Virus record (IMG/VR): IMGVR_UViG_2579778804_000007
Location: 1-34,195 of that record
Source of the DNA: a virus
Taxonomy: Duplodnaviria > Heunggongvirae > Uroviricota > Caudoviricetes
Length of the DNA stretch: 34,195 nucleotides
Direction: 5' to 3' (one strand)
Shown here piece by piece: positions 9,029 through 13,677 of this stretch. A model generated the notes under the pieces. That model saw nothing but the letters and a program-made list of their open reading frames with translations. It did no database searches and was not told where the DNA came from. Both the position numbers and the translations under genes were made by a program. Each line of letters opens with the position of its first letter. Positions within the stretch are counted from its first letter, which is position 1.

Positions 9029-9356
9029 AGTTCACCCTGGTGTTTATGCGTCCAAAATCCTGTGTCTCTGCCGTCACATGCAGCCTGCCCGGTGCCTCTT
9101 CGTTAATGAACACCGTCCCCGGAACCAGCCGTTCATCATCCTCAACCAGGAGGATAAGCCGGGTAATGATGTCGCTGCGCAGCGTCGGGCTGCGTTCGCC
9201 GATAAGCAGGGCGGCGATCCCGCTTTCGATAATGCTGTGCACCACGTCCTGGCCGATGCTGACCCGGTTATCACATCGCTGTGGCTCGTTGCCGCTGTTC
9301 AGCGTAAAACTGCCGTCAGTGATAAGCAGGTCGATGTAAAGCGATGGCGTGTTCAT
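9006..9356 (-). CDS. Small baseplate assembly protein (gpW / Mu gp46-like), about 116 aa
   Basis: Start taken as the ATG overlapping the tape-measure stop (ATGA coupling); the track's longer ORF starts at 9377. Family assignment weak. Confidence 0.4.
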   Translation of the reverse strand: MNTPSLYIDLLITDGSFTLNSGNEPQRCDNRVSIGQDVVHSIIESGIAALLIGERSPTLRSDIITRLILLVEDDERLVPGTVFINEEAPGRLHVTAETQDFGRINTRVNYERETGR

Positions 9357-11539
9357 CCCGCGTAAAGCTCCGTCCATTCATCCAGTTGCCCCGGCGTCAT
9401 CGGGTTCTGCGTGTTGATTGTCAGATTGCCGAACGTCCGGCTGTTGTCGATACGGGTTGAGGTGTCCGTGCGTATCTGGTTGCGTATGCCTCCGGGTGGC
9501 AGCTCTGCGCTGATGCGGTTGCCTGCCAGTACCGGGACGGCGGTTTCTGCAATCTGCGGAGGTACGGTGCTGCCTGTTGCGCCCCGCGTCATGGTGTTCA
9601 CCTGCTCCGTGGGCTTCATGTCGATACTGATACCGGGGATTTTGTTCAGCTTTTCCGCAAGCCAGTTCCACGTCCGGTTAAACGAGTTTTTAATGACGTT
9701 CCATAAGTCCCCGAAGACGTTACCGATGATCCCCGCCATTTTCCGGAAGGATTCGACCGGGGCAGTCGGGTCAAATGCAGCCACCACGTCCTGCCACCCT
9801 CTGATGACGATGGCGAAGATGTCGACCAGGGTTCTGATCACGCTGATAACCACCTCCAGCGCGGGGGATATCAGGCTTACCGCTGCGGCCACCACGCGAC
9901 CGCATGTTTCCCCGGCACGGGTGACGCTGTTCATCTGTCCCGTGGTCAGCTGTACCGGTGCAAACAGATCGGAGAAGGCACTGAACAGTGTTTTTATGCC
10001 CTGCCATACCGGGGTCAGCGCACGGGCAATGTCGCCGAACGCGGCAGTCACCGGGCTCATGGCGTCCAGTGCGCTGGTAAAACCATCAATAAAGCCGCGA
10101 ATAAAGGCTTTGACGGGCTGCCAGAACTTAATGGCCACCACCACCAGTGCGGCGATGGCGGCGGCAACCAGGAGGACCGGGGCGCTCATGGTCAGAAACG
10201 ACACGCCCGCCAGACGCGCGGCAAGACTGGTGGCAATGATGACGCTGCGTACTTTTGTGAGTGCGAGCGTGTACAGACCCCAGGCTGCCCTGGCGCCCTT
10301 TATGATGGCCTTATGGCCTTCCATGATGAAGCTGAACACACCCAGCACGATGTTCGTGACCGCACCGGCTGCGCCCAGCGCCAGCATGGTCAGCGTGATG
10401 TAACCCAGCCAGCGGGCGATGTTCGGGAACATGTTCAGCCAGCGCACGAACGTCGCGCCGATATCGGCAAAACGGCCAGCCAGTGGTGCGAGAATGGGGT
10501 AGAGGGCGTTACCGATGGCGGCCCGGATGTTGTAGAAGGAGGCCACAAGGCGGTCCCACGGGTCGGTCATGGCTTCCGCCATTTCCGTGGCACGCTTCAT
10601 GCCGTCATTACGCCCCAGCGCTGATATGCTCCGGTTAAGCATTTCCTGCTGTCCCCAGAGTTTTTTAATCACGTCCGCGCCACTGCCGAAGGCGTCATCC
10701 AGCGCCTGTTGTGCCGCCACGTTACCCTCAATGTTCCTGCCGAACCTCGCCTGCAGACGGTCGAGGATGTCACCCATGGGTAAAATCTTCCCGGTGGCAT
10801 CGACGAAACTCATCCCCATTTTTTGTGCGGCAGCGGGGGCACTGCGCAGGAACTCCTCATAGATGCCTGATGCCTCGGTACCCATGGTCCGTGACAGGGT
10901 GCCCAGTATGGCAAACTGCTCTGCCATGCTGACGCCAAAATCCGCGCCCGCGTTTTTGGTGCCCTCAATAAGCTCCTGCATGGTGCTCATTTCCACGCCG
11001 AACTGCTGAACCATCCACGCGGTTTTACCTGCCAGATCTTCAGCAAACCCCACGGCACCCATGGCAGAAAACTCACTGCGGAAACGGGCACCCATGGCGG
11101 CAAGGTAGCCGCTCGCCTCTTCGCTGCTGACGCGGGCAGCCACGGCCAGGGTGCTGGTTGCTGCCGTCACACGGGGTAAATCCCCGTCGCTCAGTCCGTC
11201 CAGTGCGCCGCGAATATGCCATGCGGAACGGATGATCTCCGTGGAAGACTGACCGAATGCGGTCCCCAGTTTCATGGCCTGCGTGGTGAGGGCGGTCAGC
11301 GCCTGCGCCCCGACGCCTTTGGCCTCAAGCTCGCCCAGCGCCTTCTGCATCTCCCACGCCGGATCCATCGCGGCGCGGATACCTTCAGCCACGCCCCACA
11401 GTCCGGCCACACCCACACCGATACGCGCGAACGCGCCCTGCGAGCGTTCGGCGAATCCCGTCACGGATTCCTGAACCTGCCGCAGCGGGCGGGTAAGCTG
11501 GTCTGTCAGATTGATAATGAAATCCAGCTGGCTGGCCAT
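9353..11539 (-). CDS. Tail tape measure protein, 728 aa
   Basis: Long Ala/Gly-rich protein with central hydrophobic segments, directly after the frameshifted chaperone gene. Confidence 0.8.
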   Translation of the reverse strand: MASQLDFIINLTDQLTRPLRQVQESVTGFAERSQGAFARIGVGVAGLWGVAEGIRAAMDPAWEMQKALGELEAKGVGAQALTALTTQAMKLGTAFGQSSTEIIRSAWHIRGALDGLSDGDLPRVTAATSTLAVAARVSSEEASGYLAAMGARFRSEFSAMGAVGFAEDLAGKTAWMVQQFGVEMSTMQELIEGTKNAGADFGVSMAEQFAILGTLSRTMGTEASGIYEEFLRSAPAAAQKMGMSFVDATGKILPMGDILDRLQARFGRNIEGNVAAQQALDDAFGSGADVIKKLWGQQEMLNRSISALGRNDGMKRATEMAEAMTDPWDRLVASFYNIRAAIGNALYPILAPLAGRFADIGATFVRWLNMFPNIARWLGYITLTMLALGAAGAVTNIVLGVFSFIMEGHKAIIKGARAAWGLYTLALTKVRSVIIATSLAARLAGVSFLTMSAPVLLVAAAIAALVVVAIKFWQPVKAFIRGFIDGFTSALDAMSPVTAAFGDIARALTPVWQGIKTLFSAFSDLFAPVQLTTGQMNSVTRAGETCGRVVAAAVSLISPALEVVISVIRTLVDIFAIVIRGWQDVVAAFDPTAPVESFRKMAGIIGNVFGDLWNVIKNSFNRTWNWLAEKLNKIPGISIDMKPTEQVNTMTRGATGSTVPPQIAETAVPVLAGNRISAELPPGGIRNQIRTDTSTRIDNSRTFGNLTINTQNPMTPGQLDEWTELYAG

Positions 11540-11540
11540 G

Positions 11541-11745
11541 TCACCTTCCGTTAAATGCGATCGCTATACCTTCAGCGGTCTTGTTGGCGCGGGTACGGGC
11601 AAAATATTCATCCAGCCAGATGGCCCGGGCGATGCTCTCTTCGTCGTCCGGCTCTCCGGGGAGGTAGTGACGCCGCAATGCCAGATACTGCTCAAGGGGA
11701 TTGCGGCGGATGCTTTCGACCCGCGCGGTCAGTTTTTTAACTCAA
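11541..11745 (-). CDS. E' extension of tail assembly chaperone, made by programmed -1 frameshift (E+E' product)
   Basis: Slippery heptamer A_AAA_AAC at 11738-11732 just before the E stop; the -1 frame stays open for 63 codons (KLTARVESIRRNPLEQYLALRRHYLPGEPDDEESIARAIWLDEYFARTRANKTAEGIAIAFNGR) and stops at TGA 11543-11541, two nt before the tape-measure ATG. Confidence 0.55.
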
Positions 11746-12004
11746 TCTCCAGTTTCGGGGAGTAAACCTCGTTAATCTTCTCGACGATCTGCATCTCACA
11801 GCCCGGATAACGCGCAATCAGGTCAGCCAGTGCGTCGCGGCTGGCAGGCGTCACGATGCGGTTAAGATAGGTGCTCATCGGCGCCACCTTGTTGGTCATC
11901 GTGATTTCGTTGATGAGGTTGTTAAATGCCGTCTTGTTCGGTTCAAAGCTCAGGGTTACGCCCGCAACGGACAGGATGATGGTGCCGGTGTTCTTCGTGG
12001 TCAT
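11729..12004 (-). CDS. Tail assembly chaperone (P2 gpE / lambda gpG analogue), 91 aa
   Basis: Small acidic protein immediately upstream of the tape measure gene, ending in a slippery site. Confidence 0.6.
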   Translation of the reverse strand: MTTKNTGTIILSVAGVTLSFEPNKTAFNNLINEITMTNKVAPMSTYLNRIVTPASRDALADLIARYPGCEMQIVEKINEVYSPKLEIELKN

Positions 12005-12294
12005 TGTAGTTTCTCCGTGTTTCGTATGGTTTCCACCAGGCTGTTATGCCTGGCGGCGCATTCGGTGTAGCGGCTCGTGAGGGTTCGCAGTGCCGCATCA
12101 AAATCAGCGCCTGTCGGGCCTGCCAGTCTCGGCAGTGTCTTCGGGCATTCCGTCAGCTGGTTTTCCTGCCAGGGTACGCTCAGCGGCTTCAGCACGGGCG
12201 TTGAACAGCCGGACGTAATCATCAGTAGCGCACACATTGCGGAATACCGGGCGGACGGTTTCCGTGTGAATAACGCGTTCAGTGTGAATTTCAT
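12001..12294 (-). CDS. Rz1-like outer-membrane spanin lipoprotein, overlapping the Rz gene in another frame
   Basis: Lipobox-like LLMITSGC; likely start at internal Met near 12237; reading frame begins inside the Rz gene and extends past it. Confidence 0.45.
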   Translation of the reverse strand: MKFTLNALFTRKPSARYSAMCALLMITSGCSTPVLKPLSVPWQENQLTECPKTLPRLAGPTGADFDAALRTLTSRYTECAARHNSLVETIRNTEKLQ

Positions 12295-12490
12295 TGCCCT
12301 TTAACGCCTCCAGCCGTTTTTCCAGTATGCGGGCGGACTGCTGCCCGGCTTCTGTCACCGCCCGTCGCGTGGCTTCCATGGCTTCCTGTTCGGCAAGCAC
12401 CACCCTGGCGTCATGCCAGTCATGGGCCAGCCAGCCCGCCCACATGGCGGCAAAGAGGATCACCAGGCAGCCCGCCAGCTGTTTCATCAT
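12104..12490 (-). CDS. Rz-like inner-membrane spanin
   Basis: 128 aa, N-terminal TM segment then charged coiled-coil-like region; follows the endolysin. Confidence 0.5.
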   Translation of the reverse strand: MMKQLAGCLVILFAAMWAGWLAHDWHDARVVLAEQEAMEATRRAVTEAGQQSARILEKRLEALKGNEIHTERVIHTETVRPVFRNVCATDDYVRLFNARAEAAERTLAGKPADGMPEDTAETGRPDRR

Positions 12491-12825: not shown

Positions 12826-12875
12826 GGGGTATCTCCTGTGCGTTATACAGGTTCAGGGAAGGTGAAATGTAAGGC

Positions 12876-13185: not shown

Positions 13186-13677
13186 TCACCCCTTCAGATC
13201 GCGGGTGTCACGGGCTGACAGGTAGGGCACGCCGTCAATGCTGATAAAGTCCGGGCTTGTGACCATGAACTTGATTTTTTTCGTGGTCTTTCCGGCTTCG
13301 CCTGCGCTGATGTTCACCACGTCCGACAACATGGGGACGCAGCCGAATACCTCGATTTTTTCCTCCTCGCTGCCGTTGTTGGCATAAAAGAGAAAATCCT
13401 TTTCAGGAATGGCACGCCACGACCCCGCAGAGCGGGCCACGGCACCAAACTTTTTAAAGTTCTGCGCGTCGACTTCCACCTCCACATCGGCAGAAACAGA
13501 ACCACGGGTGTAGCCGTTCGGCACGCCGCGCGTCTGTGCCACGGCGCTGTTGTCGGTGATGGTGACGGTGGCGCTTTCCACGTGGATCATGATCCCGTCG
13601 TAGTTGATATCAAACGCGCCGCCGCTGATACGTTCATTTCCGGCCATGTCAGATCTCCAGTGCTGTGTCGAGTTCAA
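13186..13677 (-). CDS. Contractile tail tube protein
   Basis: 163 aa directly after the putative sheath gene; size and position fit a tail tube. Family not verified. Confidence 0.5.
   Translation of the reverse strand: MNSTQHWRSDMAGNERISGGAFDINYDGIMIHVESATVTITDNSAVAQTRGVPNGYTRGSVSADVEVEVDAQNFKKFGAVARSAGSWRAIPEKDFLFYANNGSEEEKIEVFGCVPMLSDVVNISAGEAGKTTKKIKFMVTSPDFISIDGVPYLSARDTRDLKG

Follow-up and report, generated by a model that had tools for sequence, protein, structure and literature searches.

A probable programmed −1 ribosomal frameshift in the tail assembly chaperone gene of an HP1-like Escherichia coli prophage

The tail assembly chaperone gene of an HP1-like E. coli prophage (Peduoviridae) most probably encodes two products, the longer of which is made by a programmed −1 ribosomal frameshift of the λ G/GT (P2 E/E+E′) type; we put the probability of this reading at about 90%. 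The prophage DNA was analyzed as one window of 34,195 nucleotides (the whole of the stretch taken from IMG/VR record IMGVR_UViG_2579778804_000007), and all genes of the region discussed are located on the minus strand. According to the proposed mechanism, most ribosomes would make a 91-aa chaperone, the short and abundant product, terminating at the UGA that abuts a slippery heptamer, A_AAA_AAC. A minority would slip back by one base, tRNA-Lys leaving AAA and tRNA-Asn leaving AAC to re-pair on A_AA A_AA, and would continue with CUG ACC..., adding 63 residues. The predicted product of the slipped ribosomes is a 154-aa protein of about 17 kDa, composed of the chaperone and a C-terminal DUF6890 domain, that ends one base before the start codon of the tape-measure gene. 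The shift itself, its efficiency, and the functions of both proteins are inferred.

The 0-frame chaperone ORF in the program-made ORF list comprises 91 codons and a TGA stop (12004..11729, minus strand, as for all features below). A GGAG ribosome-binding site could be read 8 nt upstream of its ATG (12016..12013), and the terminal ATGA of an upstream Rz1-like ORF overlaps this ATG. The gene that follows encodes a tail tape measure protein of 728 aa (11539..9353), recognized by its matches to Pfam PhageMin_Tail and to phrog_28 and other tape-measure PHROGs. The tube gene (13677..13186), whose product has 163 aa, lies upstream of the chaperone gene, like the sheath gene, and a holin–endolysin–Rz/Rz1 cassette is inserted between the tube and chaperone genes, as in HP1, SI7, and phiO18P. 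The whole order of sheath, tube, lysis cassette, chaperone, and tape measure is the same in SI7, phiO18P, ESSI2_ev239, HP1, and K139. The locus has the layout of the G/GT type, namely an overlapping pair of ORFs that comes after the tube gene and immediately precedes the tape-measure gene; the definition of this type of chaperone frameshift reportedly goes back to the 2004 work of Xu, Hendrix and Duda.

The upstream ORF had been described as a tail assembly chaperone before any database was searched, and the searches agreed with that: besides its position directly upstream of the tape-measure gene, residues 10–91 of its product matched Pfam Phage_TAC_10 (PF10963; E = 9.2e-31, 106.3 bits vs. 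a gathering cut-off of 25.7), and the product also matched phrog_1214. An AF2 model of the chaperone, built from a shallow alignment, reached a pLDDT of 74 and a pTM of 0.64. Many of its Foldseek matches in BFVD were annotated as "tail assembly chaperone" or "pre-TMP frameshift protein", all of them weak (TM 0.57–0.67, E 0.03–1), and its best match in the PDB was an uncharacterised protein, 3fgx_A (TM 0.65, E 0.04).

The chaperone ORF ends with GAG ATT GAG TTA AAA AAC TGA. Its last three sense codons contain the heptamer A_AAA_AAC (11738..11732) in the X_XXY_YYZ phase, and the 0-frame TGA (11731..11729), a candidate "shifty stop" stimulator, follows it directly, exactly where the preliminary description had placed the site. 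In the −1 frame, a TGA is present two codons 5′ of the A run (11744..11742), so the two frames can be joined only at the heptamer, and a productive shift is confined to a window of 9 nt that coincides with it. Past this TGA the −1 frame reads GTT AAA AAA CTG ACC... and, as had been claimed, stays open for precisely 63 codons (LTARVESIRRNPLEQYLALRRHYLPGEPDDEES...AFNGR, 11732..11544), which, added to the chaperone, give the 154-aa fusion. It ends at a TGA (11543..11541) inside the ribosome-binding region of the tape-measure gene, GGAAGGTGAcATG. Between this TGA and the tape-measure ATG (11539) there is a single base, C (11540); the preliminary description was right about the stop and wrong only in counting two bases there, which is trivial.

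The heptamer alone has little meaning, because the window contains 42 in-phase heptamers in about 10,700 codons of 44 putative genes, and we did not accept it as evidence on its own. The chaperone heptamer is the only one of the 42 located at 0 codons from the stop of its ORF, and it is followed by the longest open −1 frame among them; at least 54 open −1 codons were found after three of the 42, the chaperone site included. The significance of the site rests on its conservation in relatives, and it is the comparative evidence that decides.

For this comparison, 115 loci were fetched, which represented 107 distinct homologous DNAs from Enterobacterales, Aeromonas, and Shewanella, and four further phage records (HP1, K139, Vibrio 1.202.O, and Yersinia YenM_324) were added. 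An A run at the last two codons, followed immediately by a stop, was present in 115/115 loci and in all four additional records, and the open −1 frame was kept in each of them. Conservation of the slippery site and of the −1 frame had been proposed as a check of the frameshift, and the relatives passed it. Among the distinct DNAs, codon −3 ends in A (NTA) in 107/107, codon −2 is AAA in 106/107, and codon −1 is AAC in 103/107; elsewhere in the same genes, GTA accounts for 15% of the Val codons and ATA for 1% of the Ile codons. Clearly, the heptamer is under selection at the nucleotide level: its synonymous sites are frozen in the 107 DNAs while the neighboring codons are free to vary, and synonymous alternatives to its codons are common elsewhere in the same genes. 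A_AAA_AAC itself was found in 103/107. Three of the other four have A_AAA_AAA or A_AAA_AAG, all of them belonging to the most distant relatives, and one (L114) has a non-canonical site. The heptamer site is present in the HP1, K139, and Yersinia phages as well. The stop directly after it was retained in 107/107, though its identity drifts (TGA in 66, TAA in 31, and TAG in 10). Within the species, the identical arrangement was found in 12 complete E. coli genomes, at 96–99.7% identity.

Right behind the slip site, starting with the very first codon, the −1 frame has the properties of a coding sequence. It is open for 62–64 codons in 86 of 87 distinct protein pairs and for 57 in the most distant pair, so that the extension, whose lack of conservation would have spoken against the frameshift, is in fact kept over 57–64 codons throughout. 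Its stop is located between −11 and +33 nt relative to the tape-measure ATG. The entropies at the three codon positions of this frame were 44/35/90 overall and 11.7/11.6/25.3 over the first 18 codons, i.e., the third position was about twofold more variable, including the 18 codons right after the slip. This periodicity and the match to a protein family substantiate the earlier impression that the −1 sequence is protein-like. Residues 110–153 of the fusion (11678..11547) match DUF6890 (Pfam PF21830; E = 2.7e-20, 72.3 bits vs. a gathering cut-off of 23.6) and phrog_7050 (E = 3.9e-25), and DUF6890 was matched by 21/21 diverse extensions. HP1 orf26 together with its −1 extension likewise gave the pair of Phage_TAC_10 and DUF6890 in Pfam. 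The extension lacks independent initiation signals, and a start codon ahead of its conserved motif is usually missing: no ATG or GTG is present within its first 22 codons in 74/107 sequences, and no ATG, GTG, or TTG in 50/107.

A tblastn search with the fused protein retrieved 67 phage records with at least 80% query cover, all of them as two adjacent pieces, as would be expected for a change of frame. When the 154-aa fusion was used as a query for homologues, only chaperones of 89–91 aa were found, and a HMMER scan with the extension, run over 1.84 billion representatives, yielded nothing beyond ORFs of 45–62 aa and one spurious 800-aa repeat protein. As no database protein contained both parts in one chain, there was no "Rosetta stone" fusion. 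A search of PDB sequences gave no matches, and the AF2 model of the fusion, made from the single sequence with no alignment, was unusable (pLDDT 54).

The flanks of the heptamer were inspected for stimulatory elements. In the window, no significant RNA structure was detected downstream of the heptamer (MFE z −0.8 to +0.3). A degenerate hairpin counterpart with 6/8 pairs and two internal mismatches (11723..11693; 5′ arm 11723..11716, 3′ arm 11700..11693) begins 8 nt 3′ of the heptamer and is probably not a significant stimulator there. Its counterpart in a sister clade (Evevirus/ESSI2-like) is a perfect hairpin of 8–9 bp, 8 nt downstream, with z −4.1 to −4.8 and compensatory changes, and the helix was fully paired (8/8) in 29/78 distinct relatives. 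With the helix specified manually in 24 diverse sequences, 76.6% of cells were paired vs. 68.6% in shuffles (0/500 reached the observed value). As the helix is weak in the window and perfect in the sister clade, the structure seems to be clade-specific and not a defining part of the window's signal. A structure common to the whole family was rejected: RNAalifold yielded no consensus across clades, and the helix is real in one clade only. A conserved upstream SD-like stimulator, as in dnaX, was rejected too, as an SD-like tetramer occurs within 20 nt in only 10/78 distinct relatives; in the window, a GGAG does precede the heptamer by 8 nt. The heptamer A_AAA_AAC performs poorly in E. coli reporters: Sharma et al. 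2014 (Table S3) give 0.16% frameshifting when no stimulator is present, 0.19% when the IS911 stimulator is added, and 0.74% when the IS3 pseudoknot is. Unless it is raised by the adjacent stop, the efficiency at the chaperone site probably does not exceed about 1%.

The role of this stop is where the most serious alternative arises, one that leaves the −1 shift and its product unchanged and has the slip taking place one step later. The stop codon would then be in the A site, and during slow termination the peptidyl-tRNA-Asn on AAC in the P site would slip onto AAA, the abutting stop acting as a stimulator that compensates for the weak heptamer. Of all flanking features, only the stop immediately 3′ of the heptamer is shared by 107/107 sequences and the HP1, K139, and Vibrio phages, and it is kept while its identity changes among TGA, TAA, and TAG. 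The intrinsic weakness of the heptamer in E. coli and the lack of a conserved RNA stimulator in the window's clade fit this possibility, as does the precedent of stops at or near shift sites as known stimulators (in PEMV, the stop is 3 nt after a −1 site). However, the position of the stop may be frozen for another reason, since its loss would add 53 residues to the chaperone of the window; moreover, re-pairing of tRNA-Asn on AAA would involve a mismatch at the wobble position, of a kind poorly tolerated by bacterial ribosomes, and in the reporters of Sharma et al. 2014 (Table S2), whose A site had no stop, the A_AAC tetramer alone gave only background shifting. We regard this late slip as a tentative possibility, with the odds against it. 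The broader proposal it leads to is equally tentative: the adjacent stop might be a stimulator conserved across the HP1-like lineage, and a natural bacterial "shifty-stop" signal for −1 shifting. Throughout that lineage (Haemophilus, Vibrio, Aeromonas, Enterobacterales, and Shewanella) a weak heptamer and an abutting stop occur together, and the downstream hairpin varies between clades.

The remaining explanations dispense with a ribosomal shift. RNA polymerase could add one A on the A6 run, which yields the same downstream frame with ...ELKK-LTAR... instead of ...ELKN-LTAR... at the junction. The site is indeed a homopolymeric A run, and three of the most distant relatives have A7 runs (GTAAAAAAATAG or TAA), but exactly six A's followed by C occur in 103/107 sequences. 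Productive sites of transcriptional slippage in bacteria are typically about nine or more long, and selection would favor longer runs. The conserved pattern is instead exactly that of an in-phase heptamer for tandem slippage, and the same A6C serves ribosomal frameshifting in IS1, which makes slippage of the polymerase very unlikely. Gene callers, for their part, have repeatedly predicted ORFs of 45–62 aa here, as if the extension were an independent small gene ("DUF6890 family protein") translated with no frameshift from an internal start or by termination–reinitiation, and the window does have a TTG at extension codon 19 (11678). Yet the chosen start codons differ from record to record, the annotation of HP1 and K139 leaves the interval blank, and in nearly half of the sequences no such codon is available in the first 22 (see above). 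The segment LTARVxAIxxNxLEQ precedes any such start and shows conservation with the periodicity of the −1 frame; where the stop is TAA or TAG (41/107), the codon overlapping it is CTA, which is no start; and separate initiation leaves the frozen heptamer unexplained. An independent gene is accordingly hard to credit, and we consider it highly improbable. As for a heptamer that meets an open −1 frame by chance, or a single gene split by a sequencing indel, the abundance of in-phase heptamers in the window, with long open −1 frames after a few of them, speaks for the former, but the same frame structure recurs in independent assemblies, which gave 107 distinct sequences, as well as in complete phage genomes, and 12 complete E. 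coli genomes have the same arrangement. The comparative data effectively refute both readings, whose probability we take to be negligible.

The preliminary description had compared the programmed frameshift with the E/E+E′ (G/GT-type) arrangement, and in its arrangement the locus does resemble P2. Both phages belong to Peduoviridae and have contractile tails, and in both a 91-aa chaperone ORF is located directly upstream of the tape-measure gene, with a −1 shift near its 3′ end giving a fusion of about 140–155 aa whose stop lies at the tape-measure start. The P2 heptamer, U_UUU_UUG, is also weak in E. coli reporters (0.12–0.77%; Sharma et al. 2014). The protein families and the slip site, in contrast, did not bear the comparison out. 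P2 E+E′ consists of Phage_TAC_7 (PF10109) and Phage_P2_GpE (PF06528), whereas the fusion of the window matched PF10963 and PF21830 only. P2 slips at T_TTT_TTG six codons before the E stop (GGT TTT TTG TCG ... TGA; its annotation puts the shift 20 nt ahead of this stop), whereas A_AAA_AAC abuts the stop in the window. The P2 chaperone gene directly follows FII, whereas the lysis cassette separates the tube and chaperone genes in the window. Homology between DUF6890 and P2 E′ was considered and found unsupported: a BLASTP alignment of HYLPGE...W with HWPPSE...W seemed suggestive at first but had E = 14, hhalign of the extension profile with P2 E′ gave a probability of 0.3%, and lenient Pfam scans of 21 extensions produced no weak matches to Phage_P2_GpE. 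As the proteins show no homology in sequence and the slip sites differ, "E/E+E′" describes an analogy of arrangement and not membership in one family. Additionally, the P2 frameshift is annotated and experimentally supported according to the cited literature, whereas that of the window is a prediction.

G/GT-type frameshifting is a general property of phages with a tape measure, and all that such a frameshift predicts at the level of sequence is borne out in the window. As in the case of λ gpG/gpGT, the window would have two products with a common N-terminus, arising because some ribosomes slip by −1 on a heptamer close to the 3′ end of the upstream ORF, and both genes are located just before the tape-measure gene. 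The functional model of λ assigns binding of the tape measure to the G part and recruitment of the tube subunit to the T part (Levin 1993; Xu, Hendrix & Duda 2013, 2014). By analogy with gpG/gpGT, the shared N-terminal part might coat the tape-measure protein, the rare C-terminal domain might recruit the tail tube protein and so start tube polymerisation, and the chaperone and the fusion may both be absent from the finished virion. The differences from λ are nevertheless considerable: its heptamer, G_GGA_AAG, is efficient in bacteria, its tail is that of a siphovirus, and its proteins have no sequence relationship to those of the window. Moreover, a fixed low ratio (30:1) and the mechanism were established experimentally for λ and are predicted for the window. 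The same heptamer as in the window, A_AAA_AAC, is a proven low-level −1 site of IS1 insA-insB′ in E. coli, with no established stimulator; the IS1 product, however, is a transposase fusion with no part in phage assembly, and its heptamer has other flanks. What the window shares with the shifty stops (Weiss et al. 1987; PEMV) is a stop at or next to the shift site, which is the conserved flanking feature here. The classic cases, however, comprise +1 shifts (RF2, antizyme), synthetic constructs, and one plant RNA virus, and the stop of the window is only a candidate for such a role.

In the GenBank and RefSeq records that were inspected (HP1, K139, phiO18P, SI7, ESSI2_ev239, Vibrio 1.202.O, Yersinia YenM_324, and an E. 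coli prophage), the frameshift is unannotated. Some of these records show two genes, whose start codons were chosen arbitrarily, and the others have nothing in the interval. A 99.7% identical prophage in RefSeq, for example, has 11541..11678 (minus strand) as a separate 45-aa "DUF6890 family protein" with a TTG start. The literature that was searched contained no mention of the frameshift for HP1-like or phiO18P-like phages and none of DUF6890, and the window's cluster is not among the prophage clusters of Sharma et al. 2014.

The mechanism proposed here is an ordinary one, near-universal in phage tails, and the view of tail assembly is unchanged by it. Judged by their sequences, the phages of the HP1-like branch of Peduoviridae appear to build the G/GT-type frameshift from protein families other than those used by P2. 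The value of the finding is mainly practical, in that the orphan DUF6890 "gene" would be recognized as the frameshift extension of a chaperone, and that DUF6890 and phrog_7050, listed as of "unknown function", would gain a role as the −1-frame C-terminal (T-like) domain of the Phage_TAC_10 chaperone. The site also offers a clean and deeply conserved natural case of a weak heptamer with an adjoining stop, which could be used for testing stop-stimulated −1 frameshifting in bacteria. If the stop does act as the stimulator, the kinetics of termination, dependent on the level of release factor and the growth state, would set the ratio of chaperone to fusion and in this way tune tail assembly.

The tail assembly chaperone of the window is encoded on the minus strand by a 91-aa ORF (12004..11729; ORF reading and Pfam Phage_TAC_10, E 9e-31), which is preceded by GGAG (12016..12013, minus strand). 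The ORF ends with GAG ATT GAG TTA AAA AAC TGA, its stop abutting the heptamer A_AAA_AAC (11738..11732, minus strand), which is in the X_XXY_YYZ phase that tandem -1 slippage requires. A TGA (11744..11742) closes the -1 frame two codons 5' of the A run; past it, this frame reads GTT AAA AAA CTG ACC GCG..., remains open for 63 codons (11732..11544, minus strand) and stops at TGA (11543..11541). As just 9 nt separate the opening of the -1 frame from the end of the chaperone ORF, a switch between the two frames is possible nowhere but at the heptamer. The gene downstream of the extension, identified by family match, encodes the tape-measure protein (728 aa, 11539..9353, minus strand). Clearly, the preliminary description was accurate in all that matters: the heptamer directly before the chaperone stop and the 63 open codons were found as it had given them, and the extension that it had called protein-like matches Pfam DUF6890 (E 3e-20) and phrog_7050 and shows codon periodicity in relatives. 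The TGA of the -1 frame does adjoin the tape-measure ATG, but the gap is one base and not two.

Genes upstream of the chaperone encode the sheath (DUF2586/phrog_907), the tube (Phage_HP1_Orf24) and a cassette of holin, M15 endolysin and Rz/Rz1. The chaperone ATG shares bases with the stop of the Rz1-like ORF (ATGA), which suggests that the lysis and tail-assembly genes are translationally coupled. This Rz1/LysC-like ORF (97 aa, 12001..12294, minus strand; weak Pfam LysC match, E 9.5e-4, below the cut-off) overlaps, in a different frame, the 3' part of the Rz-like ORF (12104..12490, minus strand). A DNA methyltransferase gene lies between holin and endolysin in the closely related prophage of E. 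coli 04-00955 (L001:1524-2276; L-numbers denote fetched homologous loci, with local coordinates) and in Aeromonas phiO18P (L003:880-1956), whereas the window has there only a gap of ~50 nt (12826..12875), and this position looks like a variable cargo slot of the lysis cassette.

Among 5,426 complete E. coli genomes, 12 carry the prophage of the window at 96-99.7% identity, and it is related to phages of the HP1-like part of Peduoviridae, namely Salmonella phage SI7, Aeromonas phiO18P and Escherichia phage ESSI2_ev239. A nearly identical prophage is annotated in RefSeq with a 'putative phage tail assembly chaperone' and, as a gene of its own, a 'DUF6890 family protein' of 45 aa that starts at TTG; in other phage records the extension interval is given differing arbitrary starts or is blank (HP1, K139, a Yersinia phage, a Vibrio phage). 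None of the records inspected (the RefSeq prophage, SI7, phiO18P, ESSI2_ev239, HP1, K139, and the Yersinia and Vibrio phages) carries a frameshift annotation, and no single chain with chaperone and extension was present in the databases searched. K139 orf30 (L119:283-861) is annotated as one 192-aa ORF, the N-terminal half of which resembles an o-spanin lipoprotein (LLLSGC lipobox) and the C-terminal 92 aa of which are the chaperone; this gene call probably begins too far upstream, and the true chaperone start would be the internal Met.

The heptamer on its own is not beyond chance. In a crude set of 44 ORFs of the window (10,689 codons), 42 in-phase X_XXY_YYZ heptamers were found, and behind three of them, the chaperone site among these, the -1 frame is open for 54 codons or more. 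The chaperone heptamer is the only one at 0 codons from the stop of its own ORF and has the longest -1 frame of all 42, but it is the comparative evidence that is decisive. We compared 115 loci encoding chaperone relatives, from viral contigs, one-genome-per-species bacterial contigs and annotated records, with HP1, K139, a Vibrio phage and a Yersinia phage added, and counted codons over 107 distinct DNA sequences. The conservation of slippery site and -1 frame that the preliminary description had proposed to check was evident. The third-last codon ends in A in all 107 (GTA 93, ATA 13, TTA 1), even though elsewhere in the same genes Val is encoded by GTA in just 15% of cases and Ile by ATA in 1%; the second-last is AAA in 106/107, and the last is AAC in 103/107, against a 52% share of AAC among Asn codons. 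Codons beside the heptamer vary freely at synonymous sites (GAG 52/GAA 51; ATT 65/ATC 41). A stop directly follows the heptamer position in every sequence, its identity drifting (TGA 66, TAA 31, TAG 10). HP1 orf26 ends with GTA AAA AAC TAA, K139 with CTA AAA AAC TAA and Vibrio 1.202.O with GTA AAA AAA TAG, all with a DUF6890-type -1 extension. Of 87 distinct protein pairs, 86 have a -1 frame that stays open for 62-64 codons, and the most distant pair has one of 57; relative to the tape-measure ATG, the frame terminates at -11 to +33 nt. Moreover, tblastn with the fused protein matched 67 phage records, always as a pair of adjoining segments that together span at least 80% of the query, the pattern that a change of frame should give.

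Exceptions at the slip site are confined to the four most distant relatives, with A_AAA_AAA, A_AAA_AAG or, in one, a non-canonical site. The two most distant are L114 and L115 (MAGs of Saccharospirillaceae and Lentisphaerota): L115 has A_AAA_AAG TAA, and L114 has GTA AAG GTA TAA, at best a site of A_AAG P-site slippage; in both, the -1 frame is still open and matches DUF6890. In a MAG labelled Bacillota bacterium (L093, JAEWTL010000126.1), a locus belonging to the Enterobacterales Evevirus-type clade is probably a binning contaminant.

Independent initiation or reinitiation of the extension cannot account for this conservation. Over the whole extension, the -1 frame has codon-position entropies of 44/35/90, and over the first 18 codons, which precede the start annotated in RefSeq, of 11.7/11.6/25.3; conservation of the peptide L-T-A-R-V-x-A-I-x-x-N-x-L-E-Q begins at the first codon past the heptamer. 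ATG, GTG and TTG are all missing from the first 22 extension codons in 50/107 sequences, and ATG and GTG in 74/107; where the stop is TAA or TAG, the overlapping codon is CTA, which is not a start codon. The conservation can be explained by a frameshift. Transcriptional slippage on the A6 run could replace the ribosomal shift, but the number of A's is kept at six, with a C after them, which in our view makes this very improbable. The interpretation in the preliminary description is supported, and we put the probability that the window locus produces a -1 frameshift fusion at about 0.9.

The best-supported mechanism is classical tandem -1 slippage: tRNA-Lys (P site, on AAA) and tRNA-Asn (A site, on AAC) would re-pair together on A_AA A_AA, and CUG would be the next codon decoded, giving a product of 154 aa in which residue 91 is Asn. 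The efficiency of the shift is likely low. In E. coli lacZ reporters without a stimulator, with the IS911 stimulator and with the IS3 pseudoknot, A_AAA_AAC gave 0.16%, 0.19% and 0.74%, the equally weak U_UUU_UUG of P2 0.12%, 0.25% and 0.77%, and A_AAA_AAG 0.29%, 4.3% and 39% (Sharma et al. 2014, Table S3); AAC-to-AAA re-pairing is poorly tolerated by bacterial ribosomes (Sharma et al. 2014). The same heptamer, A_AAA_AAC, is a proven low-level frameshift site in IS1. By analogy with λ, in which the G:GT ratio is ~30:1, a low ratio is what this system would need.

As for stimulators, folding of the RNA downstream of the heptamer was not significant in the window (z between -0.8 and +0.3), RNAalifold detected no family-wide structure, and an upstream SD-like motif was not conserved (10/78 relatives). 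In a sister clade (Evevirus/ESSI2-like), a perfect hairpin of 8-9 bp, CGAGUCCG...CGGACUCG, begins 8 nt past the heptamer (z -4.1 to -4.8; L004:3215-3262, with homologous positions in L037-L099). Its arms show compensatory changes, such as CGAAUCCG/CGGAUUCG in L062. At this register, 76.6% of cells were paired in 24 diverse sequences vs 68.6% in shuffles. The window counterpart (11723..11693, minus strand) keeps 6/8 pairs, and the stimulator therefore appears to be clade-specific. The MFE fold of the window is dominated by a 9-bp perfect inverted repeat inside the extension, CGCCGCAAU/AUUGCGGCG (11708..11700 and 11679..11671, minus strand). It lies 24 nt 3' of the heptamer, farther away than a canonical stimulator would be, and SI7 and other relatives do not conserve it. 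The abutting stop is the sole flanking feature conserved throughout. This stop might itself stimulate the shift as a 'shifty stop', for which there are precedents in the literature, but it may be merely frozen, as its loss would lengthen the chaperone by 53 residues, and we hold a stimulating role to be rather unlikely.

The locus has the G/GT-type arrangement, of which P2 E/E+E' is the known example within Peduoviridae. In P2, E is 91 aa long, T_TTT_TTG lies six codons before its stop, and the 142-aa fusion ends inside the start of T. The likeness to E/E+E' that had been proposed holds for the arrangement but not for the protein families, which are Phage_TAC_7 and Phage_P2_GpE in P2 and Phage_TAC_10 and DUF6890 here; no homology between them was detected by BLASTP (E = 14), hhalign (probability 0.3%) or lenient Pfam scans, which gave no weak matches. 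The locus thus probably works like E/E+E' but lies outside those families. By analogy with λ G/GT and P2 E/E+E', the chaperone part would bind the tape measure and the DUF6890 part would recruit the tube subunit. The AF2 model of the chaperone (pLDDT 74) gave Foldseek matches that are weak (TM up to 0.67, E 0.03-1) but thematically consistent, falling on proteins named as tail assembly chaperones. Its best PDB match, 3fgx_A (TM 0.65, probability 1.0), an uncharacterised 96-aa structural genomics protein, Geobacillus RBSTP2171, may be a prophage tail assembly chaperone.

Frameshifting in tail chaperone genes is a textbook mechanism and has reportedly been predicted for most phages with a tape measure. 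A frameshift of the HP1-like lineage was found neither in the searchable literature nor in any public record inspected, where DUF6890/phrog_7050 is of 'unknown function', and the locus is therefore a new, or at least unannotated, case of this mechanism. Its value for annotation is modest, and it may serve as a model of stop-assisted -1 frameshifting.
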